Virus record (IMG/VR): IMGVR_UViG_3300034103_000145
Location: 1-28,090 of that record
From: a virus
Lineage: Duplodnaviria > Caudoviricetes
Strand: one strand, 5' to 3'
DNA length: 28,090 bases
Positions 1-19,837 of this stretch are shown here, in pieces; the first letter of the stretch is position 1, and each line of letters starts with the position of its first letter. A program made the translations under genes and the position numbers. Under the pieces are notes generated by a model. It was given only the letters and a program-made list of their open reading frames with translations, did not search any database and was not told the DNA's origin.

Positions 1-86
1 TCCTCGCTCGCACTACTCCTTGCAGTCGTAGCGCAAGGGCCGCTCGCTGATTCGTAAGCCTACGGGTAAGCAATGATGCGAACGGG

Positions 87-115
87 TTGACAGATCGGAC
101 GCCATGTGTTAGGCT
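87..115 (+). promoter_or_regulatory. Host sigma70 early promoter P1
   Basis: TTGACA (87-92), 17-bp spacer, TG-n-TAGGCT (extended -10, 110-115). Confidence 0.8.
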
Positions 116-233
116 TCTGGGAAGTCAAGAGACAAAGCTACTGAGCAAGCGGGAGGGAAGCCTACGGGCCGACGACAAGGGCATCCCGCCTGTAGCGATC
201 AAGTTAGGATGCGATGAGCTACTAACAAGACTC

Positions 234-262
234 TTGACAAGCTGGACGCAATACGCTAGGCT
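234..262 (+). promoter_or_regulatory. Host sigma70 early promoter P2
   Basis: TTGACA (234-239), 17-bp spacer, TAGGCT (257-262). Confidence 0.8.
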
Positions 263-311
263 TGCAACACGTGAAACCTGCTTACCGCAGGAAGGCGGAC
301 TACCTGCGCAA

Positions 312-320
312 TGGTAGGAT
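312..320 (+). promoter_or_regulatory. Possible extended -10 promoter
   Basis: TG-g-TAGGAT, same -10 as P3, but no recognisable -35. Confidence 0.3.
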
Positions 321-373
321 GGTGGCGACAGGACGCCCAAGGGAGCTAGAGGCTTCCGGTGTTAGGCAAGGGC

Positions 374-402
374 TTGACACTGCGGCAGGAAGGTGATAGG
401 AT
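374..402 (+). promoter_or_regulatory. Host sigma70 early promoter P3
   Basis: TTGACA (374-379), 17-bp spacer, TG-a-TAGGAT (397-402); the tandem arrangement is analogous to T7 A1-A3. Confidence 0.8.
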
Positions 403-409
403 GGCTACA

Positions 410-1150
410 CAGTGAATAAACGTCGTGACGACCGGACGCTAAACGGTGCGGGCCTAATAAGCCTTGTGGGAAGCCCGATGGCGGGCTAGTGTTGATCGGA
501 TAGCAGGCATCCGGCGCAAGCCGGGAGAGTCACCCGAGATGCGACCTACGCCATACAACCTCCACACGTGACGCCCGTTGGTGGGCCGAGAGTATAGCGG
601 AGGGTGCGAGCCTAGAAACTCGCCTTGTGCAATCTGCGGTGCAATTCCGCCAACGCACAAGATGCCCGGGTAATAGCGGGCAGGCGCGGCCCAAGATGAG
701 GATTCCGACAGGGTTGGCTTTACGCCATAATCAGGCACAAGGATTGTGCGTCCCAAAGAGAACCCGCAGCAGCTTTTGCGCGGATCGGATGAACCCTCAC
801 GCTGTCGGGAATATCCCGGGAGTTAGTGAAAGCGCAAATGCGACACTGGTGATTATGGCACTGCATACCGGAGTAGGGTTGACAACCCGAAAGGTATGCA
901 GATATAGGTGCCCTTGGTTGGGTATCCGATGCTGGACGGTCTTGAAACCGGGCAATCTGGGATATTCGATTCCGATGTATTGGGCAGTAGGGCGCAGCGT
1001 CTCCCAATGACGACTGCGCTAGGGCACCTATATCTGTATATTTCGCTTCGGCGTGCATCGTGGATAGACCGAAGTCTGGACGCAGCTTGTAAAGGGCCGG
1101 GATAGTTGACGCCGCCGCAAGTAAGGGTGTGAACGCGGACCCAGTTCACG
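410..1150 (+). ncRNA. Candidate large structured ncRNA / early leader RNA
   Basis: No ORF with a clear RBS; more than 12 helices, e.g. 472-487, 511-524 (GCAA tetraloop), 606-623, 624-661, 663-682, 724-733/850-859, 775-781/832-838, 862-869/893-900, 901-914/1021-1034, 992-1019, 1044-1053 (cUUCGg), 1128-1148. Confidence 0.55.
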
Positions 1151-1195
1151 ATGCACGCCACCAATTTCCCACCAGTGCCAATGGAGGCACCCACG

Positions 1196-1384
1196 ATGCA
1201 CGCAAACTCCAACCTCGTTCGTTCGCAGACCAAGCGCCGCTTCTGCCAGTTCAGCCGCACCGTGTCCGTTCTGGACATGCGCCCGGATGCCGAGAGGAAG
1301 CGCGCCAAGCGTCTGCGTGATGCGGAGCGTTACGAAGCCCGCCACGGGACGAACGGCAAGCGGTCGGTCTTTTTTGTGAGCTGA
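1196..1384 (+). CDS. Small early hypothetical protein (62 aa, basic)
   Basis: GGAGG RBS before ATG 1196; in-frame ATG at 1151 lacks an RBS. Confidence 0.7.
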   Translation: MHANSNLVRSQTKRRFCQFSRTVSVLDMRPDAERKRAKRLRDAERYEARHGTNGKRSVFFVS

Positions 1385-1640
1385 CTGTATTCGAGAAGGG
1401 CGAGTCCGTGGTCTGTCAGTTGCAGGCGGCTACGCTTTCCCCTCGGGAAAGAATACACGGTCCTCGAATACGACCCTCCCGACCACACATCGCTGCCCAC
1501 GTACAGCTTTCCGGCTTACGTCGCGGTAGTGGATGACTTCGGGAAGCGCGCGGAGTGTCACGCCTACCGCTTTCGGAAGAAGTAAGACGCAAGCTAAAGC
1601 CCATTCCTTCGCGGGAGTGGGCTTTGTCGTGCGACTGGCA
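1385..1640 (+). other. Structured intergenic region (putative RNA processing / regulatory stems)
   Basis: Helices 1387-1395/1463-1471, 1435-1451, 1523-1529/1564-1570, 1596-1607/1614-1625. Confidence 0.5.
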
Positions 1641-1645
1641 CGGAC

Positions 1646-1711
1646 CCAACGGAAGTCAGACCATGAATATCGAAACCAACGGAAGTCAGACCATGAATAT
1701 CGAAACCAACG
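1646..1711 (+). repeat. Exact 30-bp tandem duplication spanning RBS and start codon
   Basis: CCAACGGAAGTCAGACCATGAATATCGAAA twice plus CCAACG; ATGs at 1663 and 1693. Confidence 0.95.
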
Positions 1712-2235
1712 CGGTTGCCATCCGCAAGAACATCAAGGCCATCGGAACTGCGCGAATCAAGCTGGTGGACATGATCCAGCTCTGCGCCCTGTCCGTGATC
1801 CAGCATGCACACGTCCACGGCGATGTTACCCTCGCCTCCGATCTGTGTCTCGCGGTCGGCAACGGCATGAAACACGAAGCGCTGCGCGTGTATCTGTCCA
1901 AGTACGGCCCGATGGCTCCGAACGACGACAAGGACAGCAAGACCAAAGCTCCGATGAAGTACGCAAAGTCCAAGCGGCTGGAAGGCGAAGCGCTCGAAGA
2001 CCAGATGGTGCGCGCCGAGGCCGAGATGTGGTACTCCGCGCCCACCGAAAAGTCCGCCGAGGAATTCAGCTTCGCCGCCGACCTGCACAAGCTCCTCGCC
2101 AAGCTCGAAAAGGCTTCGCAGTCCGGCTATACGCCGTCGCCCGAGGAACAGGCCGTCATCGAAGCCGCGCGCAAGGTGCCGAAGCCCGCGAAGAAGGCCG
2201 CCGCACCGGCTGCCGAGTACGAACCCACCTTCTGA
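1663..2235 (+). CDS. Early phage protein, likely conserved (190 aa, or 180 aa from 1693)
   Basis: Strong GC3 codon bias; HGDVTLA motif recalled from early proteins of related podophages. Confidence 0.85.
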   Translation: MNIETNGSQTMNIETNAVAIRKNIKAIGTARIKLVDMIQLCALSVIQHAHVHGDVTLASDLCLAVGNGMKHEALRVYLSKYGPMAPNDDKDSKTKAPMKYAKSKRLEGEALEDQMVRAEAEMWYSAPTEKSAEEFSFAADLHKLLAKLEKASQSGYTPSPEEQAVIEAARKVPKPAKKAAAPAAEYEPTF

Positions 2236-2277
2236 TCCACGGGAAACTCGATCAAGAGCTACCTGACTTCGCATGCC

Positions 2278-2320
2278 ACTGCACACACTCCCGAGTGTGC
2301 AGTTTCGTGCGTGTCGCACG
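2278..2320 (+). other. Intergenic double hairpin (possible processing site)
   Basis: ACTGCACAC/GTGTGCAGT (2278-2303) and CGTGCG/CGCACG (2306-2320). Confidence 0.45.
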
Positions 2321-2382
2321 TCAACGGAGACAGACATGAGCAAATACAATTCAACGGAGACAGACATGAGCAAATACAATTC
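2321..2382 (+). repeat. Exact 30-bp tandem duplication spanning RBS and start codon
   Basis: TCAACGGAGACAGACATGAGCAAATACAAT twice plus TC; ATGs at 2336 and 2366. Confidence 0.95.
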
Positions 2383-2476
2383 TCCCTCCGATGCGCACAA
2401 GCCTGCGCATGGCGGGTATCCGGGCCAGACGCCCGCGCCGAAGGCCGACGACAAGGCCAAGGGAGATAAGGCATGA
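2336..2476 (+). CDS. Small early hypothetical protein (46 aa, or 36 aa from 2366)
   Basis: GGAG RBS; stop overlaps the next ATG (ATGA). Confidence 0.65.
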   Translation: MSKYNSTETDMSKYNSPSDAHKPAHGGYPGQTPAPKADDKAKGDKA

Positions 2477-3015
2477 GCCAGATCATCGAAGGTAAGGATG
2501 CCGTCGTGCTGGTGATGAGCCGCGAAGAGGCCAAACTGCTTGGCTCGTTCCGGTTCCACCATGTCGGCGGCGACTGCGCGCTTTACAAGGTGCTGCGCGG
2601 TCTTCCGTTCAAGGAGGGCGGGAGCTTCGACACCGAGGAGAGCTGCGCCGACGGCAAGACCATCTTCCACGACTGGATTCCAGGACGTGCGGGCGGTGCT
2701 CCGAAGCCGAGCCGTTCCGGTTCGGTGGTCGGCAGACCGAAGCCCTTCGTGACGGGCGACTTCGCCGAGCCGAAGACCAAGAGTCCCGATCACTGGATCG
2801 TGGAGTGCAATGTCGGCGTGGGCTGGGAGGAACAGTGGCGTCCGAGCGGTAGCCGGGGCATCGCAGGTACGAAGTACACATCGGCGGACGAAGCGATGAA
2901 GGCCGTGCGCAGTGCGCCGTGGTTCAACCTGCGTGCCCACGAGGGACGCTATCGTGCGGCTCCGGTGTACTCTGCGGCCGAGGCTCCTGCTCCGCAACCC
3001 AAGCCCGAACCCTAG
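2473..3015 (+). CDS. Early hypothetical protein, N-terminal part of an amber-interrupted repeat protein
   Basis: GGAG RBS and coding bias; ends in TAG in frame with 3016-3396. Confidence 0.8.
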   Translation: MSQIIEGKDAVVLVMSREEAKLLGSFRFHHVGGDCALYKVLRGLPFKEGGSFDTEESCADGKTIFHDWIPGRAGGAPKPSRSGSVVGRPKPFVTGDFAEPKTKSPDHWIVECNVGVGWEEQWRPSGSRGIAGTKYTSADEAMKAVRSAPWFNLRAHEGRYRAAPVYSAAEAPAPQPKPEP

Positions 3016-3021
3016 AAGTGG

Positions 3022-3396
3022 GTGGTGCAGTACAACCACCAATCCGGCACGGGTGCCGGGAACTGGGAAACCCTCACCCGGCCGACGTGGCTGCCGGGTC
3101 GCATGCCCGCCGAGGGAGTCTACACATCCCGCAACGAGGCATACCGCCAGATCAAGCTGCGCGCCAAGAAAGTCGGCGCTCTCGAAAGCTCGTACCGTGT
3201 GGTTCCGGAAGGCACGAAGGGTGGTGCGGAGATGGATCGCGGCTACTATCGCGGCCAGTTCTGGAACACGACGACCAAGGCATGGCAGGGCACCGCCGAT
3301 GTGGTAGGTTATCGCACTGCCGAGGAATGCCGCCGCTCGATCAGCTCGAAGATCGGCCTGACCTACCGCGTGAAGTGGTATTCCAACGTCGCGTGA
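3022..3396 (+). CDS. Early hypothetical protein, probable in-frame continuation of 2473-3015
   Basis: Same frame as the upstream ORF, no convincing RBS, carries two more copies of the W..YT/S..EA..YRV repeat. Confidence 0.65.
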   Translation: MVQYNHQSGTGAGNWETLTRPTWLPGRMPAEGVYTSRNEAYRQIKLRAKKVGALESSYRVVPEGTKGGAEMDRGYYRGQFWNTTTKAWQGTADVVGYRTAEECRRSISSKIGLTYRVKWYSNVA

Positions 3397-3402
3397 TCTG
3401 CC

Positions 3403-3430
3403 GCTGCGCCTTCCAACGAGGGCGCAGCTT
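3403..3430 (+). other. Intergenic hairpin (weak terminator or processing site)
   Basis: GCTGCGCCTTC-caac-GAGGGCGCAGC followed by only TT. Confidence 0.4.
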
Positions 3431-3456
3431 CGGAACAACGCCAAACAGGAGAGGAC

Positions 3457-3642
3457 ATGAAGAACATCCCGGTCACCGTGATCGGCCGCCCGCTTGCGGC
3501 TCGCGCCTTCGTCGGTTGCGATCTGATGCCGGGCATGGAACCCATCGACCTCCGTGCCGTGAAGCGGTACGAGGATGCACGGCCCGCAGTCGAGGGCAAG
3601 GACTACCTGCCCGGCACCTACGTGGAGAGGTGGTATGCGTAA
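3457..3642 (+). CDS. Early hypothetical protein (61 aa)
   Basis: AGGAGAGG RBS, ATG start, coding bias. Confidence 0.8.
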   Translation: MKNIPVTVIGRPLAARAFVGCDLMPGMEPIDLRAVKRYEDARPAVEGKDYLPGTYVERWYA

Positions 3643-3829
3643 GGTCATGCTTTCATACCGGGTCCACGTCACCGACCTGAAAACCGCGAGGCAGTATTAC
3701 TTCGGATACCACCGCACGAAAGGTAACGAAGGCTATCAGTTTGGTAGCCGAGAAGAAGCCGACCGCGCCGCCGATGTGGTGAACGCGAATCCCACATACC
3801 TCGCGGATGTCGAGGAGTACGAAGTCTAA
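3635..3829 (+). CDS. Early hypothetical protein (64 aa)
   Basis: GGAGAGG RBS before ATG 3635, overlaps the upstream stop; FGSREEA motif. Confidence 0.75.
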   Translation: MRKVMLSYRVHVTDLKTARQYYFGYHRTKGNEGYQFGSREEADRAADVVNANPTYLADVEEYEV

Positions 3830-3852
3830 CCAACCAACGAGGAGAACCAACC

Positions 3853-4371
3853 GTGAACAAGCTCTACTTCGGCATCACCCGTGCCATCGGCACCGCCCAG
3901 ATCGTCGGCGTCGTCGCCAACCTCGGCCTCATCGGCAGCCGCGCGCCGACGGCGGAGGAGACGGCACTCATCCTGTCCAAGATCAAGGACAAGGCGACGG
4001 AAAGCCTCGCCGATGCCCTGCGCGACGGCACCTACCCGAACATCATCTCGGTGTGGGACAAGCGTGCCGACGCCCGCAATGCCATCGCCACGCTCAACAG
4101 CTACGACAGCCCGCAATTCACCTACAACGTCGGCGAAGTCGGCGACCGGGAACGCAGCTCGCCCCGCCCGCTGGGCTGGAGGCTGATGTTCTGCGGCGGC
4201 GTCATCAGCGGCTACAACCACCCGTCCGATGGCACGACCGTGTTCATCGACGGTGACAGCTCGAACAAGAACGAAGTGAACTGCCTGTTCGATACCCGGG
4301 CCACCGCCCGGAAGGTAATCAAGCAGAACGGACTGAACGAGGACTACAAGGTGGTCCGCGTCGATGCGTAA
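3853..4371 (+). CDS. Early hypothetical protein (172 aa)
   Basis: GAGGAG RBS, GTG start, strong codon bias. Confidence 0.85.
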   Translation: MNKLYFGITRAIGTAQIVGVVANLGLIGSRAPTAEETALILSKIKDKATESLADALRDGTYPNIISVWDKRADARNAIATLNSYDSPQFTYNVGEVGDRERSSPRPLGWRLMFCGGVISGYNHPSDGTTVFIDGDSSNKNEVNCLFDTRATARKVIKQNGLNEDYKVVRVDA

Positions 4372-4651
4372 GCTCGGTCTGCGTCTGCTGATCCTGCTCT
4401 ATTGGGTCATCGGGCGCGGGCCGTGGCTCGTTGTCGGTCATTACACTGACGACGAAGGGAGGGCTTGCCGGTTTCGTACCGGCGGGTCCACTCCCGATGG
4501 CCGCTACGTCCGCACGTTCGATGACCTCGACGAAGCCAAGGACTACGCATACGAACGCAACGAGCAGGCGTTCACCGATCCACTCGGCACCTTGTACTAC
4601 GTGTGGCACGAGCTGGAGTTCAACTACTTTTACTCCAAGGAGAAACGCTGA
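4364..4651 (+). CDS. Early hypothetical protein (95 aa) with hydrophobic N-terminus
   Basis: Overlap-coupled to both neighbours; LRLLILLYWVIG segment; FDDLDEA motif. Confidence 0.75.
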   Translation: MRKLGLRLLILLYWVIGRGPWLVVGHYTDDEGRACRFRTGGSTPDGRYVRTFDDLDEAKDYAYERNEQAFTDPLGTLYYVWHELEFNYFYSKEKR

Positions 4652-5106
4652 TGGGCCTCATCGACAGCATGAATAGAGCCGTGAAGGGCACGGCGAACTG
4701 GCTTCGCGGTAAGCGCGGCGAGAGCGACATCCCCAAGGAAGAACCGCTGCCCCAGCCCGAGCCTTACCTCGGTGTCGAAGTGGCGACCGCCACGCCTCCC
4801 GAGCCGGACACCTTACGCTATCGCCACGTTTCGGTGCCGCTGTATCCCATCGAGAACCCGATGCTGCGCAAGCTGCTGGGCGTGGGCTACACGATGGGCC
4901 GTGGTCAGACGCACAACATCGGCAATAACGCAATGAAGCGTGAGGCCGACCGCATCGCCGAGTTCCACGGTTTCAACAACAAGATGCGCCGCCGACTGCG
5001 CACCAAGATCAAGCGCCGTGCCGAGGAGCTGCGGTCGGGTCAGGCCACGCTGTCTCCGGTCGTGCGTGAGGGAATGCGCCGCGGCGCAGCGGAGGCGATG
5101 TCGTGA
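4651..5106 (+). CDS. Early hypothetical protein (151 aa, Arg-rich C-terminus)
   Basis: AAGGAG RBS; TGATG overlap at 4649-4653. Confidence 0.8.
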   Translation: MGLIDSMNRAVKGTANWLRGKRGESDIPKEEPLPQPEPYLGVEVATATPPEPDTLRYRHVSVPLYPIENPMLRKLLGVGYTMGRGQTHNIGNNAMKREADRIAEFHGFNNKMRRRLRTKIKRRAEELRSGQATLSPVVREGMRRGAAEAMS

Positions 5107-5435
5107 GCAAGCTGCTGGGTAACTTCATCGAAGTCGTCATCCCTAGCACACGGATGCAAGAGATCCGAGTTCGTGAAGCCCTCGACAACAGCGTTACCGA
5201 CCTCGGCGGATGTACCCTGACCGAAGGTCGCGGCTTCTACGTTCGGCAAGACAACGGCAAGATCGACGCCGAGCATGTCATCACCGCACGGTGGGAGTAC
5301 GCCGAAGAAGACGGCGAGACGGCATCGCTTGCCACCGGCAAGATCGTCGATGCTCTGCTGGAGGCCGGAGAAGAATCCGTTCTGGTCCGAGGTTACTCGC
5401 ACGGCAACTACAATTCCGAACTGATGTTCGCCTGA
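5103..5435 (+). CDS. Putative SAM lyase-like (T3 gp0.3 / DUF3574 PII-like) protein
   Basis: GGCTLTEGRGFY...AE...GEESVLV pattern resembles GxY...E...QxxVLV of phage SAMases; GGAGG RBS, GTG start. Confidence 0.5.
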   Translation: MSKLLGNFIEVVIPSTRMQEIRVREALDNSVTDLGGCTLTEGRGFYVRQDNGKIDAEHVITARWEYAEEDGETASLATGKIVDALLEAGEESVLVRGYSHGNYNSELMFA

Positions 5436-5574
5436 CAGGGAGAGCGCATGCGTATTCATGACGGCCCGTAACCGCACAACACATAGACCACAGAGAAGAC
5501 GACGCTGCGCATCGCCCGGCCTGCGATAAATGACCGGGCATCCTACATCCACCGTCAACGGAGAATCAATTCAC

Positions 5575-6003
5575 ATGACCGATACCAACGATCAGAGCCA
5601 GTTCACCCACTACAAAGTCAAGCGTGCCGAGCTGGTCGAAGACCGCGCCGCCGCGCAGGCCAAGGTGGAAAAGATCGACGCCGCCATCGCCAAGCTCGAC
5701 GCGCAGCAGGCCAACGTCGATGCCATCGAAGCCCTGAAGTCGGGCGACAACGTGGCTTACGTCTACGGTCGGGCCGCCAACAAGCGCATCCTGTCCGGCA
5801 CCGTCGCCGCCACCAAGAAGAACGATAAGGGTGCGGTGCAGCTCAAGGTCGAGCATGGCACCGGCTTCGACGCGGAGTTCCACCTGATCGACAGCTCGGC
5901 CCTGCTGTTCACGGCCGAAGAAATCGAAGCCGCGCAGACCGACATCGACGCCACCGTGGCCGCCGCCAAGGCCGCCGAAGCCGCCAAGCAGGCCGCGACG
6001 TGA
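5575..6003 (+). CDS. Hypothetical protein (142 aa; N-terminal coiled coil plus beta-rich domain)
   Basis: GGAG RBS before ATG 5575; very strong codon bias. Confidence 0.85.
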   Translation: MTDTNDQSQFTHYKVKRAELVEDRAAAQAKVEKIDAAIAKLDAQQANVDAIEALKSGDNVAYVYGRAANKRILSGTVAATKKNDKGAVQLKVEHGTGFDAEFHLIDSSALLFTAEEIEAAQTDIDATVAAAKAAEAAKQAAT

Positions 6004-6221
6004 GCGCCCGCACCAAGAGCAACCGTCCGGAGTACGTGGCCGGGCGTGACCTGAAGGTCGGCCAGAAGTACCGCGTCATCGCCAACGGCAAGGGCGAGGT
6101 GTTGGACAGCAGCACCTACCTGCTCGCCACGAACATGGTGGACAAGAAGGGCAACCGGCAGATGGTCAACGTGACCACGGGCGAGGTTTTCCTCGCGACG
6201 CCGGGTTCGATCTGGACCTAA
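6000..6221 (+). CDS. Hypothetical protein (73 aa)
   Basis: GTGA overlap with the upstream stop; coding bias. Confidence 0.8.
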   Translation: MSARTKSNRPEYVAGRDLKVGQKYRVIANGKGEVLDSSTYLLATNMVDKKGNRQMVNVTTGEVFLATPGSIWT

Positions 6222-6234
6222 TTGCGAGGACAAG

Positions 6235-7056
6235 ATGAGCAACGAACTTCCCGACAGCGACTGGCTGCCGCATGCGGAACGACTGAAGGTCGGAACCCGC
6301 ATACGCATCAGCCATGATTGCGGTGAAGGGAACTCGTTGCTCATCACTCGCATGCACGACAAGTCCGCCGCATACTGCTTCAGGTGCGGTGGCAAAGGAT
6401 TCAAGCGCGAGCACGAGAGCTTAGAAGCCAAGCTGGTAAGGACACATGCCGAGCAAACATGCGAGCGCCGAGCGCGCTCAACCGTGAAACTCCCCGAGTC
6501 GAGAGTTTACGACACGACGGAGTGGCCGCTAGTGGACAAGGTGTGGTTCTTCAAGATGGGACTCTCGCTTCGTATGATAGGGGAACTCGGACTGTACTGG
6601 TGCCCGGACATCGGGCGCGTGGTACTACCCATCATCGAAGGCGACCAACCGATTTACTGGACAGCCCGGTCATCCTCTCGGATGCCTAAGTGGCTGACGC
6701 CCGACGTTCCAAAGGACGGACTTGTCGCACGCTACGGCGTGGGCACGGGTGACTCCATCGTTCTGTGCGAAGACCCGCTCTCCGCATACAAGGTGGGACT
6801 GGTGACAGAGGCGTGGTCGCTGCTCGGCACCAAGCTGCACAACCGCGTGTTGATGCAGCTCATAGAGCGAGGCCAACGTGTAGTGACGTGGCTCGACGAC
6901 GACAGAGGTAGAAGCAACGGTAGGAATCCCGGCCAAGAAGCAGCGACGGAAATCGCTGCGCGCCTTCGTGCGTTTGGGGTGGACTACCGCAACGTCACGA
7001 GTGATCGTGACCCCAAGTATTACAACGCGGACTACATCAAGGAGGCACTGCAATGA
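6235..7056 (+). CDS. DNA primase (Zn ribbon plus TOPRIM)
   Basis: HDC...YCFRC zinc motif; VLCED...S and WLDDD TOPRIM motifs. Confidence 0.92.
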   Translation: MSNELPDSDWLPHAERLKVGTRIRISHDCGEGNSLLITRMHDKSAAYCFRCGGKGFKREHESLEAKLVRTHAEQTCERRARSTVKLPESRVYDTTEWPLVDKVWFFKMGLSLRMIGELGLYWCPDIGRVVLPIIEGDQPIYWTARSSSRMPKWLTPDVPKDGLVARYGVGTGDSIVLCEDPLSAYKVGLVTEAWSLLGTKLHNRVLMQLIERGQRVVTWLDDDRGRSNGRNPGQEAATEIAARLRAFGVDYRNVTSDRDPKYYNADYIKEALQ

Positions 7057-7097
7057 CAGACCCTTACCCGAGAGAGGAAGACCCGTATGAGTCTTGA
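7053..7097 (+). CDS. Possible 14-aa mini-ORF MTDPYPREEDPYES
   Basis: AAGGAGG RBS at 7039-7045; ATGA overlap with the primase stop; overlaps the helicase start. Confidence 0.3.
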   Translation: MTDPYPREEDPYES

Positions 7098-8373
7098 CCT
7101 GACACTGCTGCGCCTGTGCAGTGACAAGGGAAAGTTCGACCGCCTCGTTCCCAACGCCCCGCGCGAAGGTCTCGACGAGCTGACAGTCATCATGCTCGAC
7201 GCCTTGCGCGCCTACTACAAGGAGTTTCCCGAGACCAAGGCGCTTCCCTTCGACGTGTTCGATGGTTGGGCGTTGGAGTTCAAGTGGAAGACTCTGCCCG
7301 ACGACAAAAAGTCTCTGCTCAAGCTGCACCTGAAAGCCATGCGTCAGCCCGTGCCCGCCGAAGCGGAACAGGGGATGATCGAGAAGCTGCTGGAGCTGGA
7401 GCTTGCCACCACTGCGGTCAGCAAGATCGTGCAGTGGAATGGCGGTGCGGAGTTCTCGCTGCGGGACGAGTTGTCCACGTTGACGGAAGGAGTCACCGAC
7501 CGCATGGACCGCAAGGCTCGGCTTCCGCTCGTCACAGAAAGTCCGGAAGAACTGATGAAGATGGACGAGCACAACATCGGCATCCACTTCAGGCTGCCGT
7601 GTCTCGCGCGCAATCTCCGGGCCATGCGCGGTGGCGACTTCGGTATCTACGCCATGCGTCCTGATGCGGGCAAGACGACTTTCCTGACCAGCGAGTCCAG
7701 CCACTGGATCACGCAGCTCGACAGCGTGTGGCCCGGCCAGAATCGCACGGGCATCTGGCTCAACAACGAAGGACCGGGCAAGAGGATCAAGCAACGCTGG
7801 TATCAATCCTTGCTCAACGCCACGATACCCGAGATGGTGGAGTGGGCGAAGGACGGCAGCCTGCGCAAGCGAATCGAAGAAGCGACGGGCGGGGACATCA
7901 ACCGCATGCAGTTCTACGACATTCACGGATTCAACTCCGGGGAAGTCGAAGCGATCATCAAGCAGACGAACCCCGGATTCATCATATTCGACATGATCGA
8001 CAACATCACGTTCACCGGCGGCATGACCAATGGCGGACAGCGTACCGATCAGATGCTCGAAGCCATGTACCAAGCCGCGCGCAACTGGTGCGTGAAATAC
8101 GATACCGTTGGTGTCGCGACTTCGCAGATCAGCGCCGAGGGCGAGGGCGTCCAGTACCCGCCACAGTCCGCACTGAAGGACAGCAAGACGGGCAAGCAGG
8201 GAGCGTGCGACTTCATCATCATGGGCGGCAAGCTCAACGATCCAGCGATGGAGCGATTCCGGTACGTCGGCACACCGAAGAACAAGCTGAACCGAGCGGG
8301 TGGTAAACGTGACGTGAGGCAAGAGGTTATGTTCGATGCCGAGCGCGCCCGCTTCTACGAGGAGGCAGCATGA
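7087..8373 (+). CDS. DnaB-like replicative DNA helicase
   Basis: Walker A AMRPDAGKTT, Walker B IIFDMID, SQ motif, KTGKQGACD. Confidence 0.95.
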   Translation: MSLDLTLLRLCSDKGKFDRLVPNAPREGLDELTVIMLDALRAYYKEFPETKALPFDVFDGWALEFKWKTLPDDKKSLLKLHLKAMRQPVPAEAEQGMIEKLLELELATTAVSKIVQWNGGAEFSLRDELSTLTEGVTDRMDRKARLPLVTESPEELMKMDEHNIGIHFRLPCLARNLRAMRGGDFGIYAMRPDAGKTTFLTSESSHWITQLDSVWPGQNRTGIWLNNEGPGKRIKQRWYQSLLNATIPEMVEWAKDGSLRKRIEEATGGDINRMQFYDIHGFNSGEVEAIIKQTNPGFIIFDMIDNITFTGGMTNGGQRTDQMLEAMYQAARNWCVKYDTVGVATSQISAEGEGVQYPPQSALKDSKTGKQGACDFIIMGGKLNDPAMERFRYVGTPKNKLNRAGGKRDVRQEVMFDAERARFYEEAA

Positions 8374-8504
8374 AATACATCTCGGCTCAAGTAGCAAACA
8401 GGACGACGATGCGGAGTATCCCCTGCGCATCGCAAAGGCGTCCCGGTATGATCGCGTTTCTCGCGTTCAATCGTCTGTACCTGCGGCTCGGGAGATACGA
8501 ATGA
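8370..8504 (+). CDS. Small hypothetical protein (44 aa, MKYISAQ...)
   Basis: GAGGAGG RBS; ATGA overlaps with both helicase and polymerase; below the ORF-track cutoff. Confidence 0.6.
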   Translation: MKYISAQVANRTTMRSIPCASQRRPGMIAFLAFNRLYLRLGRYE

Positions 8505-10951
8505 GCTTCGCATCCTTCGACCTCGAAACCACGATCCGCGAGACGCTGAAGCGCAAAGCGAATCCGTTCTACAACCTCAACCGCATCGTCGCCATCGGGT
8601 ACAAGCGCAAGGGCGATGCGAAGAACACCGGACTTTACTTCGCCACGGGTAAAGACTTCGATGGTGAGTACATCGGCGGCGCACCTGACGGGTGGCTGCG
8701 CGATCTGTGCGAAGGGACGCAGTACCTCGTCGGCTTCAACATCAAGTTCGACATCCTGCACGCCATCTGCCAAGGCCCGCTCAATCGTCAGGCATGGATC
8801 GAGTTCATCGACCGTGGCGGCCTCGTGTGGGATTCGCAGCTAGGCGAATACCTGCTCTACGGTATGTCGCAAGAGTACCACATGTGCAGCATGGACGAGG
8901 TGTCCCCGAGATACGGCGGCAACCTGAAGGACGATGCAGTCAAGTCCCTGTGGCAAGCAGGCGTGGATACTTGCGACATCGACAAGACCCTGCTGATGGA
9001 CTACCTCGTCGGAACCAACGACACGGACGACGTGGGCGACATCGGCAACACCGAGAAGATGTTCCTCGGGCAGCTCGAAGCATTTCGTGCCCGAGGGGGT
9101 CTGCGCTCGGCTCTCCTCAACATGGGCGCGCTGTGCTTCACCATCGAAGCCGAATACAACGGCATGTTCGTGGACAAGGTGTGGGCGCTGGAGCATGCGA
9201 AGAAGTTGGAGGCGGACCTCGCCGAAGCTACCGCAGAACTCCAGTCCTACATCCCCGAACTTCCCGAAGGGCTGACCTTCAACTGGAACAGCCGCTTCCA
9301 CAAGAGCGCGCTGATCTTCGGCGGCGACGTTAAGTACGTGGCAAAGGTTCCGGTCCTTGTCGCCGAGACAGGCAAGCAGCAGTACGTGCAGAAGGATGAG
9401 CTGCACTACGTCCTGAACGACGGCACCACGACTGCGACCGCCCCGGTGGACAATTTCGACAACCTCCATCTCTACTCAACCTTCGCCGGTGGGAAGAACA
9501 AGGGCGAGTACAAGACGAAGAAGGTCAAGGTCGATGACCTGACCAAGCCCAAGTTACGTAACGAAGACATGCTGTTCCGCTTCGCCGGTTACACCGAAGG
9601 CAGTGAGCGGTGGGAAAGCAAGTCCGACAAGGGCGTGTATTCCACCGCTGCCGAAGTCATCGAAGAACTCGGCGTACGGGACATCCCCTTCCTGAAGGCT
9701 CTCGCAAAGCGCGCCGACATCCACAAGGACTTGTCCACGTACTTCATCACGACGGACGAGAAGACCGGAGAGCAGAAGGGAATGCTGACGCTCGTGGGTC
9801 CGGATGGCATCATCCACCACAAGCTCAACATGGTCAACACCGTGACCGGCCGTTTGTCGTCTAGCGACCCGAACTTGCAGAACGTGAGCAAGGGCGAGTT
9901 TGACATGGAGACCGGCAAGGAGAAGGGCAGCCAGATCAAGCGCGCTTTCATCAGCCGGTACAAGCGTGGCAAAATCATCCAGTCGGACTTTACGTCGCTG
10001 GAGATTTACGTGCAGGCGATCCTCACTCAATGCCGTCAGCTCATCGACGATCTGAAAGCTGGCCTCGACATGCACTGCCTCCGCGCAGAGCAGGCGTGGG
10101 GCGTGGCGGAAGGTCGGGACTACGCTTACATCCTCGCAGCGGCGAAGGACGAGAAGCACCCCGAGCACAGCAAGTGGAAGAAGCTTCGAGGTAACGCGAA
10201 GGTGTTCTCCTTTCAGCGTGCATACGGTGCTGGCGTCGCGAAGATCGCACTCACCACCGGCATGACCGAAGAAGAGGTCGAGAAGCTGGTGCGCGCCGAG
10301 GCCGAGCGTTATCCGGAACTGGGAGAATACATCGAGCACATGACCAAGGTGATAGCACAGAATCGGGTCAGCACTTCCCGCTTCGTGCCGCACCCGGAAG
10401 TGCCCGGATTGACATGCCATCTCGGTCGCTCGCACTTCACCACGCCGGACGGTAAGATGTATTCCTTCAGCGAGTCTCCTTCGCCGAAGTTCATCGCAAC
10501 CCGACCCACCGCCCGAGGTGGTACTGCGCAGTCCTTCTCACCCACGGAAATCAAGAACTATCCGGTGCAGGGTACGGGTGGTGAATGGGCGAAGGCGAGC
10601 ATGTACCTGTCGTTGCGTGCGTTCTACCGCATGTACGTGACGCAGCCCGAGCGTTGGCTGGGCCAAGCCCAGATCGTGAATCAGGTCCACGATGCGGTAT
10701 ACGTGGACGCAGCAGAATCCATCGCCACGGAGGCGGCGGCCCTCCTGCATGCAAGCATGCTCGAAGCCTCCGTCTACATGGAGTGGTGGTTCAAATGGCC
10801 TCTGCCTCTTGGCGTGCCATGCGAAACCAAGATGGGCGACAACATGATGGAGGAACACAATCCTCCGGCAGAGTTCGTCAGCCTGTTCCCCGGCTACCGC
10901 ACGATGATCCGCAAGGAATTCGTCGGAGGCCACAACCCGTCGTTTGAATAA
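8501..10951 (+). CDS. Family A DNA polymerase with 3'-5' exonuclease domain
   Basis: ExoI FDLET, GFNIKFD; TGRLSSSDPNLQN; motif A SDFTSLE; motif B KVFSFQRAYG; motif C VHD; GGAG RBS before ATG 8501. Confidence 0.97.
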   Translation: MSFASFDLETTIRETLKRKANPFYNLNRIVAIGYKRKGDAKNTGLYFATGKDFDGEYIGGAPDGWLRDLCEGTQYLVGFNIKFDILHAICQGPLNRQAWIEFIDRGGLVWDSQLGEYLLYGMSQEYHMCSMDEVSPRYGGNLKDDAVKSLWQAGVDTCDIDKTLLMDYLVGTNDTDDVGDIGNTEKMFLGQLEAFRARGGLRSALLNMGALCFTIEAEYNGMFVDKVWALEHAKKLEADLAEATAELQSYIPELPEGLTFNWNSRFHKSALIFGGDVKYVAKVPVLVAETGKQQYVQKDELHYVLNDGTTTATAPVDNFDNLHLYSTFAGGKNKGEYKTKKVKVDDLTKPKLRNEDMLFRFAGYTEGSERWESKSDKGVYSTAAEVIEELGVRDIPFLKALAKRADIHKDLSTYFITTDEKTGEQKGMLTLVGPDGIIHHKLNMVNTVTGRLSSSDPNLQNVSKGEFDMETGKEKGSQIKRAFISRYKRGKIIQSDFTSLEIYVQAILTQCRQLIDDLKAGLDMHCLRAEQAWGVAEGRDYAYILAAAKDEKHPEHSKWKKLRGNAKVFSFQRAYGAGVAKIALTTGMTEEEVEKLVRAEAERYPELGEYIEHMTKVIAQNRVSTSRFVPHPEVPGLTCHLGRSHFTTPDGKMYSFSESPSPKFIATRPTARGGTAQSFSPTEIKNYPVQGTGGEWAKASMYLSLRAFYRMYVTQPERWLGQAQIVNQVHDAVYVDAAESIATEAAALLHASMLEASVYMEWWFKWPLPLGVPCETKMGDNMMEEHNPPAEFVSLFPGYRTMIRKEFVGGHNPSFE

Positions 10952-10966
10952 GGAGTACAGAACAGC

Positions 10967-11821
10967 ATGAGTCTCGACGCACTGTTGAACAAGGTGGCAA
11001 CGCAGGGCAAGGACCAGTCGGTGGCAACGTCCGGCGGTGGCGACTACACGCCGCCCGAGGCGGGCCAGACCGGCGCACGCATCGTGGCCTACTACGAAGT
11101 GGGCCAGCACGAGGGCGAGTACAAGGGCGAGAAGAAGATCAACAACGAAGTCATCATCATCTTCGAGCTGATCGGCAAGAAGCATCCCCCGAAGGAACTC
11201 GAAGACGGCACCAAGGTTCCCGTCCGCCTCTCGCTCCTCATGAACCTGAGCACGAACGAGAAGGCCGGTTACTTCAAGATGTTCAGCCGACTGCGCACGG
11301 AGGAGAGGCACTTCGTCCAGCTCCTCGGCAGCGCGGTCCTGCTCAACGTCGTCCACCGCGATGCCGGCGAAGGCGACAAGAAGCGCGTCTACGCGAACAT
11401 CGACAAGGAGAGCGTGCGCAAGCCGATCATCCAAGTTCCCGACATGGAAGACGGCGCGGTGGTTGGCGTGAAGGACCAGCCGTTCCCGGTCGGCGCTGCC
11501 CTGACGCCGCTGAAGGCGTTCGTCTGGGAGTTCGCCGATGCCGAGATGTGGGACAGCATCTTTATCGAAGGCGAATACCCCGAGCGCAAGGACGAGAAGA
11601 CCCGCAAGGTCATCGCGGCGGCCAAGAGCAAGAACTCCATCCAGCTCAAGATCGCATCGGCTCTGAACTTCAAGGGTCTTCCGTGCTACGACTACGCTGC
11701 ATCCAAGCTGGTCGGCGGCACCGTCACCCGGGAGGGCGTCGATGCGCTGGACGAGGTGGTCGGTGACGTGACGCCGAGCGGCCCGCGTGATGCGGACGAT
11801 CCGCTGGACGGAATCGCCTGA
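10967..11821 (+). CDS. Conserved replication-module protein (possible ssDNA-binding protein)
   Basis: AAGGAG RBS; phiKMV-type position between polymerase and exonuclease; acidic C-terminal tail. Confidence 0.7.
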   Translation: MSLDALLNKVATQGKDQSVATSGGGDYTPPEAGQTGARIVAYYEVGQHEGEYKGEKKINNEVIIIFELIGKKHPPKELEDGTKVPVRLSLLMNLSTNEKAGYFKMFSRLRTEERHFVQLLGSAVLLNVVHRDAGEGDKKRVYANIDKESVRKPIIQVPDMEDGAVVGVKDQPFPVGAALTPLKAFVWEFADAEMWDSIFIEGEYPERKDEKTRKVIAAAKSKNSIQLKIASALNFKGLPCYDYAASKLVGGTVTREGVDALDEVVGDVTPSGPRDADDPLDGIA

Positions 11822-12750
11822 TGGACCTGAACGCTCTGATGGCTCTGGCTGCGGAGCGTTCCCCGATGCCCAGTGTGGAGGTTCGACAGCATAACCCCGG
11901 CGTGGTTGCTCACGTCGATGGGGACTACGCTGCGTACTTCTGCGCTGGGCGCGAGACGTGTTCTGCGGGGGACGCACGACGCAACGTGCTCTCCCGCATC
12001 TCGCACCTGAAACATATCAGCGGAGCGGATCGTGTCATCATGCACCTGACTCATGGTGCATCGACGAAGGGCGATCGGTTCCTTGCTGCTACGAGTCAGC
12101 CGTATCAGGGGCAGCGCACGCACTCCAGCAAGCCGCTCAACTGGGCCTTCCTCCGAGATTGGATGGAGAACTACGACGGTCCCCACTTCAAGCCCAAGGT
12201 GTGGACAACGCGCGAAGCAGACGACGGCATGGCCTACGTCAGCACCGGCGCTGCGCAGCATTCGGGCACGATGCACGTGATCCACACGGCAGACAAGGAC
12301 ATGCGAATGTTCTGCGGAACCCACGTCTCGTGGGCAGACTACGCTATCACCGAGGTTCCTCTCGGAGCATACGATGTGGTCGGCGCGGACGGGTTGCAGT
12401 ACGGGCACAAGTGGTTCTGGATGCAGATGCTCATGGGTGACACGGCGGATCACATCCCCGGGCTTCCCAAGGTGGGCGAGGTAACGGCAGAGAAGCTGCT
12501 GTTCGGCACCAAGAGCAACAGCGACGCGGCAGGCATGGTGTACGGATTCTACCGAGCGAAGATGGGCGAGCGTTGGCAAGACTACTTCGCCGAGCAAGCC
12601 GTGCTTCTCTGGATGCGAACCGACCGTGATGCGAAGCTGCTCGACGTGCTCCAGCTCGGAGTCTTCGGCGAGAACCTGATCGCTGCCTTCCACAAGCTCG
12701 AAGCCGAAGTGGCCCACAAGCGCGCAGCACTTGAGGAACTTGCACGATGA
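11821..12750 (+). CDS. 5'-3' exonuclease (T7 gp6-like)
   Basis: HVDGD, YQGQR, READD, DKDM and MGDTADHIPGL motifs. Confidence 0.92.
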   Translation: MDLNALMALAAERSPMPSVEVRQHNPGVVAHVDGDYAAYFCAGRETCSAGDARRNVLSRISHLKHISGADRVIMHLTHGASTKGDRFLAATSQPYQGQRTHSSKPLNWAFLRDWMENYDGPHFKPKVWTTREADDGMAYVSTGAAQHSGTMHVIHTADKDMRMFCGTHVSWADYAITEVPLGAYDVVGADGLQYGHKWFWMQMLMGDTADHIPGLPKVGEVTAEKLLFGTKSNSDAAGMVYGFYRAKMGERWQDYFAEQAVLLWMRTDRDAKLLDVLQLGVFGENLIAAFHKLEAEVAHKRAALEELAR

Positions 12751-13133
12751 AGAGACTAACCGCAACACAGGTAAAGCTGATTCGCGTGAAGCTCGCAGCG
12801 GAGCAAGGGAACCGATGCGCGCTGTGCGGAGGACAGTTGGGTTTGAAGGCACCACTCGATCCCGTTCTCGACCACGACCACAAGACGGGAGCGGTGCGCG
12901 GTGTACTCCATCGCGGCTGCAACTCGTTGCTCGGCAAAGTCGAGAACAACGGACCGCGCTACGGTGTGCGGGACATACTCGCATTCTGCGGCGGACTGTC
13001 CAACTACCTGCGCAAGCACATGACTAACATCACGGGGTACTTGCATCCCACCCACAAGACCGAAGACGAGAAGCGCCTGCTGAGGAATCTGCGAGCGCGT
13101 AAGTCCCGGGCCAAGAAGAAGGAGAATCCGTGA
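12747..13133 (+). CDS. Recombination endonuclease VII
   Basis: QGNRCALC...LDHDHKTGAVRGVLHRGCNSLLG. Confidence 0.93.
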   Translation: MKRLTATQVKLIRVKLAAEQGNRCALCGGQLGLKAPLDPVLDHDHKTGAVRGVLHRGCNSLLGKVENNGPRYGVRDILAFCGGLSNYLRKHMTNITGYLHPTHKTEDEKRLLRNLRARKSRAKKKENP

Positions 13134-13960
13134 ACCTGACCAAGTTTCTGAGGCGTGCCCCCAAGAAGGGTCCGAAGATTCTGTGCCTCGACATCGAGAC
13201 ATTCCCCATCGAGTTCTGGGGATGGCAGATGTTCAACAACAACTTCAGCCCGAAGCAGATCAAGCGAGACTGGTCGCTGATGTCGTTCGCATGCGAATGG
13301 CTCGACGATGACGAGGCTACGTTCTACCTCGACCAGCGCAAGGCCGCCGACGTGTTCGACGACAGGGCGCAGGCCGAGGCGCTGCACAAGCTGCTCGACG
13401 CGGCGGACTTCGTGCTCGCACGCAACGGCAAGAAGTTCGATCTTCGCAAGGTCAAGGCCCGGCTCGCGATCCTCGGGCTTCCTCCGCTGTCTCCCGTGGG
13501 CGTCATCGACCCCATGCTGCTGAATCGTGTGGAGTTCGCCTTCACGTCGCAGAAGCTGGAGTACACCACGGGCGTGATCGTTCCCGAGCTGCGCAAGTAC
13601 GACCATGCAAAGTTCCCCGGTTTCGACCTGTGGGTGGCCTGCATGCAGTCCTTACCCGGCGCGTGGAACGAGTGCAAGGAATACAACATCATCGACGTGA
13701 AGTCCATGAAGGCGGAGTACCGAAAGCTGCGAGGCTGGTACACGCAGCACCCGAACATCGCCGTGTACTACAAGGCGGACGGGAGCGAGCACCGCTGCAA
13801 CAAGTGTGGGCACAACGAGATGATCCCGCAGGACACCCCGGCGCGAACTCAGGTCGGCACCTACCTCCTGCTCCAATGCACGCAATGCGGAGGACACAGC
13901 CGTGGGCGCAAGCTCACTACCACCATCGAACAGCGCAAGCACATCACCGTTCCCGCGTAA
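13130..13960 (+). CDS. RNase H-like (DEDD) 3'-5' exonuclease with C-terminal Zn finger
   Basis: LDIET, NGKKFD, YNIIDV; CxxC...CxxC. Confidence 0.85.
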   Translation: MNLTKFLRRAPKKGPKILCLDIETFPIEFWGWQMFNNNFSPKQIKRDWSLMSFACEWLDDDEATFYLDQRKAADVFDDRAQAEALHKLLDAADFVLARNGKKFDLRKVKARLAILGLPPLSPVGVIDPMLLNRVEFAFTSQKLEYTTGVIVPELRKYDHAKFPGFDLWVACMQSLPGAWNECKEYNIIDVKSMKAEYRKLRGWYTQHPNIAVYYKADGSEHRCNKCGHNEMIPQDTPARTQVGTYLLLQCTQCGGHSRGRKLTTTIEQRKHITVPA

Positions 13961-13969
13961 GGAGGCAAC

Positions 13970-14305
13970 ATGACAGACAACGAACGTGGCGTCGGGCTGA
14001 AGTTCGACGCCGGGAAGAATCAAGCGCGTCTACTTCGTGAGGGCGTGCCGCGCGCACTCGAAGAACTCGACAAGGTGCTGACATTCGGTGCCAAGAAATA
14101 CGCCGCGAATTCGTGGCAACATGTCCAGAACGCAGACGAGCGGTATCAGGATGCCAGTTACCGGCATGACAGCGCCCGCAACAAGGGCGAGGTGTTCGAT
14201 CGGGAGACAGGCTTGATGCACCGGGCGCATCACATCATCAACGAGTTGTTTCTGTTGGAGCTGGAGCTGCGTCGGGAGGGACTCGATGCAATCAAGGCGC
14301 CGTAG
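13970..14305 (+). CDS. dATP/dGTP diphosphohydrolase-like protein (DUF5664)
   Basis: GLKFDAGK...VLTFGAKKYAANSW...RH...DRETGLMHRAH signature. Confidence 0.8.
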   Translation: MTDNERGVGLKFDAGKNQARLLREGVPRALEELDKVLTFGAKKYAANSWQHVQNADERYQDASYRHDSARNKGEVFDRETGLMHRAHHIINELFLLELELRREGLDAIKAP

Positions 14306-14495
14306 TATCAAAGAGGCGTGGGTCAATATCGCCATCGGCTACAGCATCAACTACTGCGCGAACCTCGCGCTGCTCCCCATCCTATGGCACCCGGAGCATC
14401 CGATGATGTCGGCACACGCAATCGGCGTGGCCTTCACGGGGATCAGCTTCATACGCCAGTACATCATCCGTCGCTGGTTCAGCAAGAAAGATTAA
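14286..14495 (+). CDS. Small two-TM phage membrane protein (69 aa)
   Basis: SIKEAWVNIAIGY...FTGISFIRQYIIRRWF pattern; GGAGG RBS. Confidence 0.75.
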   Translation: MQSRRRSIKEAWVNIAIGYSINYCANLALLPILWHPEHPMMSAHAIGVAFTGISFIRQYIIRRWFSKKD

Positions 14496-14504
14496 GGAGG
14501 TACG

Positions 14505-14888
14505 ATGAACTACCAGAACAACACCAAGCGCCTGATCCAATCCTACGAAAGCGCCGTCGCTTGGGGCAACGGCGATCACGAAGAAGCTCTGCAAGAAGCG
14601 ATCAGGGCCGCGTTCCCCGGCATCGGCGACGACGGTCAAGCCGAGCTGTACGCTAAGATCGCAGAAGCGTGGGAAGGCTACCGTACTGCCCTCGTCCCGC
14701 GCAAGCTGTGGATCGGTCAGATCGTAACGTCCTTCATGTCGGGCCGTGCATCGGCAGCGTCGGGCGGCCTCATCGTCCACAACAACCTGCCGAAGAAGTT
14801 CGTGCCGTGCTCCAAATGCGACCTACCGGAGTGCGAGAAACGGCAGTCGTGCGGACTCAAGGCAGCCGCTGAGAGGGTGCCAGCATGA
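14505..14888 (+). CDS. Hypothetical protein with Cys-rich C-terminus
   Basis: AAGGAGG RBS; CSKC...C...C. Confidence 0.8.
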   Translation: MNYQNNTKRLIQSYESAVAWGNGDHEEALQEAIRAAFPGIGDDGQAELYAKIAEAWEGYRTALVPRKLWIGQIVTSFMSGRASAASGGLIVHNNLPKKFVPCSKCDLPECEKRQSCGLKAAAERVPA

Positions 14889-15787: not shown

Positions 15788-16209
15788 GCCTAGTTATCTA
15801 CCACGACGGTATCATGTACGCAGACACCAAAGCGTGGGGAGGCCCAGGCGTTTCTCCTCCCGGGAACAAGGACAAAGTGTTGGTCGCGGACAGCGGAGAC
15901 TTGGTGGGAATCACGAGCGGAGCACTCGGCATGCCCACCAAGGTGATCGAGTCTTACAACTCTGGAGAAAAGTTCGTCGAAGCGGGTGACCACCAAACAC
16001 TCGTTCTCCGCCGAGACGGTAGCGTCTGGTACTGGGCCGATGACGCCTGTATAGTCGGCCCGCTCACCTGCAAGTTCTCCGCAGTCGGCACCGGATCGAA
16101 GTATGCGCTTGGCGTGCTTCGTCACGGAGGCACCGTAAAGGAAGCATTCAAGATCGCATCAGAGCTGGACTACTTCACCGACAAGGTGTTCCGCACATTC
16201 CGCATATAG
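15784..16209 (+). CDS. HslV/proteasome-beta-like Ntn-fold protein
   Basis: MSLVIYHDGIMYADT...DKV...AVGTGSKYALG...EAFKIA..LD; GGAGG RBS, ATGA overlap. Confidence 0.7.
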   Translation: MSLVIYHDGIMYADTKAWGGPGVSPPGNKDKVLVADSGDLVGITSGALGMPTKVIESYNSGEKFVEAGDHQTLVLRRDGSVWYWADDACIVGPLTCKFSAVGTGSKYALGVLRHGGTVKEAFKIASELDYFTDKVFRTFRI

Positions 16210-16218
16210 GAGACATAG

Positions 16219-18735: not shown

Positions 18736-18736
18736 C

Positions 18737-18756
18737 TTTCGGTACACATACGACAG
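18737..18756 (+). promoter_or_regulatory. Putative phage RNAP late promoter, copy 1
   Basis: TTTCGGTACACATACGACAG, exact 20-bp direct repeat just after the RNAP gene. Confidence 0.65.
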
Positions 18757-18814
18757 ACCGAGACGGCCCTCGCCGCATCCCGCCAACGCGAAAGCGTGGG
18801 TTACCGGGAGGGCG

Positions 18815-18834: not shown

Positions 18835-18842
18835 GAGGCTCA

Positions 18843-19479: not shown

Positions 19480-19482
19480 CCT

Positions 19483-19830: not shown

Positions 19831-19837
19831 GGCGCGC

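Follow-up and report, generated by a model that had tools for sequence, protein, structure and literature searches.

The gene-free left end of T7-like phage genomes is usually taken to hold promoters and a processing hairpin, and the locus analysed here raises the question of whether the stretch between the last host-type promoter and the first gene encodes an RNA that is itself under selection. The window—the whole analysed stretch of 28,090 nucleotides—represents the left 28 kb of a phiKMV-type, Pradovirus-like genome of the Autographiviridae, the closest named relatives being the Pradoviruses infecting Xanthomonas and Xylella. Covariation indicates that its leader very probably has a selected secondary structure with a pseudoknot and with T-loop-like and loop-E-like modules, and the covarying, pseudoknotted family to which it belongs is absent from Rfam. 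The RNA is a new family, within the known kind of large structured phage RNAs and RNase III-processed early leaders.

Genomic setting and early promoters

The genes of the window are arranged in the order small early genes, primase, helicase, DNA polymerase, ligase, single-subunit RNA polymerase (16219–18735) and head and tail genes. The three sigma-70-like promoters preceding the leader are given in Table 1, together with the remaining features; two further TTGACA boxes are located upstream of the window on the identical contig L007. P3 is the sole plus-strand consensus promoter detected within positions 1–19900, and its transcript would start near 409. Given the promoter consensus and the mapping available for LUZ19, it is in all likelihood the host polymerase that would make the leader from P1–P3. 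A structured RNA was found 3' of the last promoter in every leader examined.

The stretches between the promoters (window 101–400) are more stable than shuffles, with z −3.6 and −4.0, a signal confined to the plus strand, and have motifs in common with Pradoviruses; transcripts from P1 and P2, being longer, may bring additional 5' domains. It should be noted that TTGACA at 879 was also considered as a promoter and rejected, as no −10 box follows it and as f20 and f30 have the TTGACA altered, yet the hairpin kept.

Table 1 Features of the left end of the window (positions as in the window)
Feature	Position	Strand	Remarks
P1, sigma-70-like early promoter	87..116	+	repeat family with P2 and P3; under promoter-scan threshold
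P2, sigma-70-like early promoter	234..263	+	repeat family with P1 and P3
P3, last host-type promoter	374..402	+	10/12 consensus, extended −10
Conserved structured RNA core, ~495 nt	409..903	+	90–99% identical pieces over 418–916 in Logan contigs of close relatives
5' hairpins 431–447, 450–464, 472–487, 510–525	431..525	+	loop/linker changes in X10 and X11
Closing helix Pa, 559–563/599–603	559..603	+	sequence replaced in every lineage, pairing always kept
Predicted pseudoknot 583–588/687–692	583..692	+	6/6 pairs in window, chance ~3%
Three abutting hairpins	606..682	+	R1 match; 15/19 pairs changed on both sides
3' multibranch domain	724..859	+	closed by 724–733/850–859; hairpins 735–749, 764–783, 801–823; subdomain 825–847
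Terminal hairpin X:Y	861..901	+	AGUA/GAA bulged-G (loop-E-like) internal loop; stem covaries, 4 sequence classes
23-bp uninterrupted stem Y:Z, 892–914/1021–1043	892..1043	+	hypervariable apex; predicted RNase III site
Strain-specific insert, 13–16-bp inverted repeat	1044..1164	+	missing in X10 and X11; outside RNA family
Conserved hairpin over part of gene 1 ribosome-binding site	1173..1190	+	5' side complementary to 856–863
Gene 1, 62-aa basic protein, 16 Arg+Lys	1196..1384	+	phrog_15315

Extent, coding potential and folding of the leader

Close relatives were obtained as contigs from 8 of 24 listed sequencing runs and aligned to positions 340–1260. They match 418–916 in pieces, mostly at 90–99% identity, and then diverge: X10 has 917–1164 swapped for 168 unrelated letters, and X11 continues past 904 and re-enters before 1165, its two loose ends being mutually complementary, so that the long stem appears to be fully rewritten there. 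The run X19, labelled RNA-Seq, was discarded as transcript evidence, having been judged probably DNA.

The original prediction described the leader as a single structured, untranslated RNA unit of ~740 nt. Concerning its coding potential, this agrees with the present results, since the four longest leader ORFs are without a PHROG match, and a conserved open frame over the leader was not found, frameshifting indels being present in close relatives (a 1-nt deletion at 755 in X7 and X8, and +1/−1/+2 in X10). The structured RNA was also retained, but not its extent: because the hairpins of 1044–1148 are missing in X10 and X11, i.e. strain-specific, and the apex of the long stem is freely replaced, the leader consists of three parts rather than one unit. 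The nested architecture likewise stands as a conserved multi-domain fold, part of the nesting being wrong and the 3' third representing a processing-type stem and a variable insert.

When compared with shuffles, the whole of 410–1150 folds better, as had been anticipated (z −3.4, 0/20 shuffles as good), but the signal is uneven, the core 409–903 giving z −2.5 (0/30 as good) and the sub-regions 409–723, 724–903 and 893–1045 giving z +0.16, −7.2 and −6.9, respectively. Single-sequence folding is in any case weak evidence alone, because coding windows of the same genome (mean z −1.1) reach −7.4 in one case and a 10-bp Watson–Crick helix arose by chance in 55/300 shuffles; a Watson–Crick run of at least 14, or of at least 20 with G-U pairs, was seen in 0/300.

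All five long-range helices proposed originally are complementary and all nine hairpins fold alone. The relatives support 472–487, 559–563/599–603, 606–623, 624–661, 663–682, 724–733/850–859, 806–818 and 901–914/1021–1034. Two helices had to be given up: 462–472/703–713, which contains a G-U pair and a mismatch, is disrupted by uncompensated changes in X7 (466, 470), X8 (471) and X11, and 775–781/832–838 is better replaced by 825–828/844–847 plus the hairpins 764–783 and 833–842. The minimum-energy fold is unsupported by the close variants, because 10 of the 13 variable sites (out of 26) that fall in its pairs break them (p 0.3). Homology-guided helices, covering 208 of 486 positions, hold only three of the 26 sites (p 0.0008, a value that is partly circular, as the helices were picked once the variants were known); two of these keep the pair, and the change at 628 breaks one in the outer stem of the T-loop hairpin.

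The conserved core and its family

At the sequence level, the window leader overlaps with the Pradoviruses in 840–903 only, and since blastn of 405–850 against 50,697 phage records yielded two chance matches only, the homology of that part is visible from structure alone. The Pradoviruses carry their own conserved leader, with the promoter 384–471 nt ahead of the equivalent 3' end of the core. Among 13 Pradovirus-type leaders, 24 of 79 pairs are changed on both sides, with 97.5% of cells paired; this is far above slid controls and was equalled by 0/500 shuffles, although related sequences may beat shuffles without structure. The covarying pairs belong mostly to peripheral hairpins, the core helices being invariant within the genus.

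The core recurs outside the genus, so that the family comprises Pradovirus as well as Ponderosa-, Paz- and phi31-type phages, the latter three with the core alone, covering cultured phages of Xanthomonas, Xylella and Stenotrophomonas. It is a mosaic family, the 3' domain of the window being shared only with the Pradoviruses and the Ponderosa and Paz types being without the 3' platform. Two covariance sub-models were prepared, R1 for the three-hairpin core (11 sequences, the window excluded) and R2 for the Pradovirus 3' domain (the window likewise not in the model). The top R1 match in the 28 kb is window 597–693 (27.3 bits, E 1.5e-5, next 7.7, the E-values being rough), and R2 matches window 777–905 (58.4 bits, E 1.4e-15). 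The alignment including the window, in which 15/19 core pairs are changed on both sides, was fitted to the model and leans towards it; few invariant nucleotides are left after the window is added to the family. Covariation and the window-free model searches together support the main expectation, namely a conserved multi-domain structure at the RNA level, belonging to no catalogued family and lying directly behind the host-polymerase promoters.

The closing helix Pa has 5/5 Watson–Crick pairs in 11/11 loci, in four sequence versions (p 0.72 in the window). The pseudoknot connects the Pa-enclosed segment with the strand behind the third hairpin, forms 5/6 or 6/6 pairs in all 11 loci and covaries across lineages; in four lineages, pairing is retained in both Pa and the pseudoknot. 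For the window the pseudoknot is a prediction, its 3' strand occupying the same alignment columns as the Ponderosa/Paz/Prado pseudoknot strand and its 5' strand being shifted 19 nt further in relative to the relatives. One strand of the Prado-type leaders is able to pair within either the pseudoknot or the 3' domain. The middle hairpin (624–661) has a conserved asymmetric internal loop, a 4-bp stem (636–639/647–650 in the window), present in three versions across the relatives, and a 7-nt loop starting with UG, which resembles a T-loop, just as the internal loop of the terminal hairpin resembles a loop E/bulged-G motif. Upstream of these elements, 409–558 resembles the Prado-type 5' hairpins by eye only, and the sequence profile A5 of this 5' part gave no match to window 409–600.

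These features bear on the view that the leader is an inert, nuclease- and Rho-resistant spacer over gene-free DNA needed for injection, replication or packaging, followed by an ordinary processing stem in which ATCTGT would pause or halt the phage polymerase as it transcribes through the concatemer junction. Untranslated leaders do need structure to escape Rho. A spacer would, however, hardly account for the unpaired bases kept across genera, including a 22-nt identity between the Pradovirus and Ponderosa types, nor for a pseudoknot, internal-loop and T-loop geometry that persists though the helices are rewritten. The median identity of the core (0.80) also exceeds that of the promoter region (0.60) and nearly equals that of gene 1 (0.86), the stem apex having 0.48; the spacer is therefore regarded as quite improbable. 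Tertiary-type features under selection argue, instead, that the RNA binds something.

The terminal hairpin and the long stem

Sequence conservation ends within the 5' arm of the long stem. The stem is uninterrupted over 23–27 bp, with an apex of 71–140 nt, in 17/17 Pradovirus-type loci, a set including the window and some near-duplicates. The base of its 5' arm (Y) pairs with either the upstream X or the downstream Z, the two alternatives being mutually exclusive, and the three strands covary in four sequence classes. In folding of the 17 loci, the X:Y hairpin has p 0.81–1.0 in truncated transcripts and 0.0 in full ones, while Y:Z is formed in 17/17 full-length folds (p 1.0). From folding and the three-way covariation, the hairpin 861–901 is predicted to form first and to be displaced once the 3' arm of the long stem is made.

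Processing stems of RNase III present a duplex of about two helical turns ahead of the first early gene, and this is what the covarying 23–27 bp amount to in all 17 loci. RNase III would probably cut the long stem, leaving a discrete RNA with its end near 900–910; X:Y would then re-form, giving a loop-E hairpin at the freed 3' end of a released RNA of ~495 nt. The folds of the full and truncated transcripts are those expected of a processing stem, should the released RNA require protection at its 3' end.

The exclusive pairings that covary together could also belong to a cis switch, by which the leader as a whole would control gene 1 and the early operon upon sensing a ligand or a protein, possibly the basic protein of gene 1 in analogy to the lambda N leader. 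Such a switch would set which of X:Y and Y:Z forms, attenuate transcription at the stem's U-rich end, or govern how accessible the ribosome-binding site is. The strand shared between the pseudoknot and the 3' domain in the Prado-type leaders would suit such a switch, as would the complementarity of 856–863 to 1173–1180, beside the ribosome-binding-site hairpin; this complementarity is 8/8 in 15/17 loci and 7/8 in the other two. There is, however, no compensatory change in the latter pairing, and folding assigns it p <0.3 in 16/17 loci; the U tracts are only 3–5 long, and the Ponderosa and Paz types have the core without the 3' platform. Since Y:Z wins every full-length fold, the X/Y/Z switch appears temporal, not balanced, and the control in cis is considered improbable. 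Release of the RNA by RNase III is the reading followed below.

The 3' arm Z holds ATCTGT and a short U-rich run, the base behind ATCTGT covarying with its stem partner. The variants are ATCTGTT in the Xc10-type stems, ATCTGTA in the window, Prado and XAJ24, and ATCTATA in the Ponderosa-type ones. The T7 class II signals are described as ATCTGTT, occurring also at the concatemer junction and being strictly sequence-specific (10.1101/2021.01.11.426313). The Xc10-type stems, ending with ATCTGTT and a U run, are similar to these terminators, whereas the window has ATCTGTA and the polymerase of its phage is not that of T7. The ATCT(G/A)T motif with its U-rich run occurs twice, close to the left end and at the leader end (L007:1703 and window 1032–1043), the same pair being present in L001, L004, L005, L023, L024, L025, L150, L152, L154 and L157; in SB4 the motif follows directly behind the annotated terminal repeat, like the concatemer-junction signal of T7. 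Because most of the phages checked have the motif close to their left end as well, a phage-polymerase stop may overlap the long stem; this recurrence and the T7 signal at the junction also speak for the inert spacer.

Concerning the region behind the stem, the 13-nt arm 1050–1063 of the insert is complementary to the copy 1147–1159 and likewise to the gene 1 start-codon region (1191–1203), the copy yielding an in-frame upstream ATG at 1151. The gene 1 protein, to which no Pfam or Atlas family was assigned, might be an RNA-binding partner of the leader; the gene sits behind all three Xanthomonadales leader types.

Searches for known RNAs

No known family had been recognised in the leader originally, and Rfam 15, which includes GOLLD, ROOL, OLE, ribozymes, introns and riboswitches, gave the same answer, with 0 matches in the window at the gathering threshold, a best E of 0.58 in 1–2400 and chance matches only in eight related loci. 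Ribozymes, introns, GOLLD and ROOL had no Rfam match even at E up to 5–10, ARAGORN found 0 tRNA or tmRNA genes in 6/6 left-end loci, and with both tools the RNA resembled neither tRNA or tmRNA nor CRISPR repeats or antitoxin RNAs. The cores of group II domain V, RNase P P4, group I P7 and the hammerhead, compared by eye with the leader, were rejected due to unfit geometry or order and the lack of an Rfam match. A single exact pattern of the 3' motif had 0 matches in 185,579 prokaryote genomes; the pattern used for scanning metagenomes was too loose, 1/119 loci being a true homologue (L038), and the viral-scan loci L010, L011, L163 and L168 were dropped as chance matches. The literature search found no description of the RNA, although an unpublished or supplementary listing may exist, and a term search of 10.64898/2026.10.21.760802 returned 0 matches.

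Like GOLLD, ROOL and OLE, the leader RNA is large, multi-domain and pseudoknotted, with variable inserted hairpins (PMC12286853); unlike them, it is smaller, without an Rfam match and fixed in position at the start of the early operon of lytic T7-like phages, and while GOLLD and ROOL are often found beside tRNA islands, the six left-end loci have no tRNA genes. GOLLD and ROOL are described as phage RNAs forming cages (PMC12286853). An RNA-only multimer of this sort, or a self-cleaving or ligating ribozyme maturing the early transcript, would be in keeping with the pseudoknotted multi-helix core and its tertiary-type modules. With few invariant nucleotides in the family, and with the Rfam and tRNA results just given, it is nevertheless the least likely of the functions considered and very improbable.

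Leaders of related phages

Gene-free leaders without a model match occupy the same slot in SB4, BUCT700, BUCT598, SB1, BUCT609 and phiKMV-like phages. R1 and R2 gave no match in BUCT609, SB4, BUCT700, BUCT598, LKD16, phi-2 and J8-65, nor did R1 in the SB1 leader, or R2 and the profiles in that of LUZ19. In folding, SB4 (z −5.2), BUCT700 (z −2.7) and LUZ19 (z −2.6) stand out from shuffles, LKD16 only weakly. The leaders of SB4, BUCT700, BUCT598 and SB1 (L024:826-1240, L151:574-955, L152, L153) are mutually conserved and make up a third leader type having a similar hairpin with an 8-nt loop, i.e. a candidate sister RNA family. Among the Phikmvvirus leaders, those of LUZ19 (L170:685-1105) and LKD16 (L164:1296-1600) show several short Prado-type motifs by eye, and the former, with its long stem and large apex, is a candidate unannotated ncRNA in a model phage.

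LUZ19 is reported to have five strong promoters at the left end, the next mapped plus-strand promoters lying behind the polymerase gene, and a gene-free 420-nt unit, TU010, from the last host promoter at 1284 to 1704 (PMC10914365). Its authors take the TU010 end and P006 as transcription end and start sites, and their table of ncRNAs, limited to <250 nt, gives two other RNAs (PMC10914365). A long hairpin has the 1704 end within its 5' arm, and P006 at 1561, a motif-less and inactive 'promoter', falls in the 5' arm of a long stem; both ends could represent cuts. TU010 shares with the window leader its genomic position, a similar length and the end at a long hairpin, but because it does not match the models or profiles, it is an analogy and not a demonstrated homologue.

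Both the lambda N leader and the early pre-mRNA of T7 are cut by RNase III (PMC9032294); in them, as here, a long duplex separates the last early promoter from the first gene. The duplex of the present family differs from both in its 23–27 uninterrupted bp and its replaceable apex of 70–140 nt. The piece upstream of it is a conserved pseudoknotted RNA of 400–500 nt, unlike the leader fragments of T7, which are not known to be conserved pseudoknotted RNAs.

Proposed function of the released RNA

The most specific proposal—that the leader is a conserved ncRNA, released by RNase III and acting on the host RNA polymerase in the way of put—is tentative, with the balance of probability against it. 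The put RNA of HK022 suppresses termination by binding the beta-prime zinc-binding domain. It lies behind early promoters and acts untethered over 10 kb (PMC9378689). The similarity consists in an RNA that directly follows early host-polymerase promoters, in a phage needing long early transcripts, and it is because of this position, the host polymerase having to cover ~17 kb from P1–P3, that put-like action is the first choice. A put-like RNA would carry early transcription through 16–18 kb to the phage polymerase gene; that its target would be the host transcription complex, as the position hints, is doubtful. The put RNA has ~70 nt and two stems, whereas the core of the present family has 384–495 nt and more than ten helices, is 5–7 times larger and tolerates inserted hairpins; there is no sequence or model match between the two, and polymerase binding by the window RNA is putative. 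Moreover, none of the 15 terminator-like sites within 1–19900 is on the plus strand, so that intrinsic antitermination is perhaps little needed. The finding that the 5' half (409–723) is no more stable than shuffles also counts against this explanation.

Alternatively, during the first minutes of infection the released RNA could act in trans as a decoy or scaffold for a host protein of defence or RNA handling. All early promoters being upstream, the leader RNA would be the first and most abundant product, its 3' hairpin would be protected after the cut, and related phages such as SB4 and BUCT700 hold different structured modules in the same slot, a turnover that would be typical of counter-defence cargo. 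No target is indicated, however, Rfam and ARAGORN show no resemblance to tRNA, tmRNA, CRISPR repeats and antitoxin RNAs, and the decoy appears unlikely; put-like action, itself doubtful, is placed just ahead of it. The broader statement, namely that a pseudoknotted RNA of 400–500 nt is the first infection effector in phiKMV-type phages, released by refolding and cutting and docking on either the host RNA polymerase or a defence protein, has a somewhat better prospect, if still short of an even chance.

The presence of family members in the cultured phages Prado, Paz, phi Xc10 and Ponderosa, which have laboratory hosts, makes these proposals directly testable. They bear on how phiKMV-type phages push the host polymerase over ~17 kb before their own polymerase is made, and the leader should not be cut away as junk when biocontrol phages are engineered. 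If the proposals are true, an RNA does a job thought to be left to early proteins in T7-like phages, and the phiKMV group as a whole, phages for therapy and biocontrol among them, may have diverged versions in this slot.

Further observations in the window

A 200-nt stretch in the early gene cluster (4300–4499) has a folding z of −7.4 (25 shuffles), a search for a long inverted repeat in it finding none, and the RNA polymerase gene contains a 22-nt inverted repeat (16749–16770/16980–17001, 91% complementary). Two 30-nt tandem duplications, at 1641–1700 and 2321–2380, each repeat a ribosome-binding site and a start codon and are either real or assembly artefacts. Finally, intergenic hairpins at 1585–1642 and 2270–2324, each followed by a common motif ahead of early genes, are possible further processing sites, the former being kept in the Pradoviruses.
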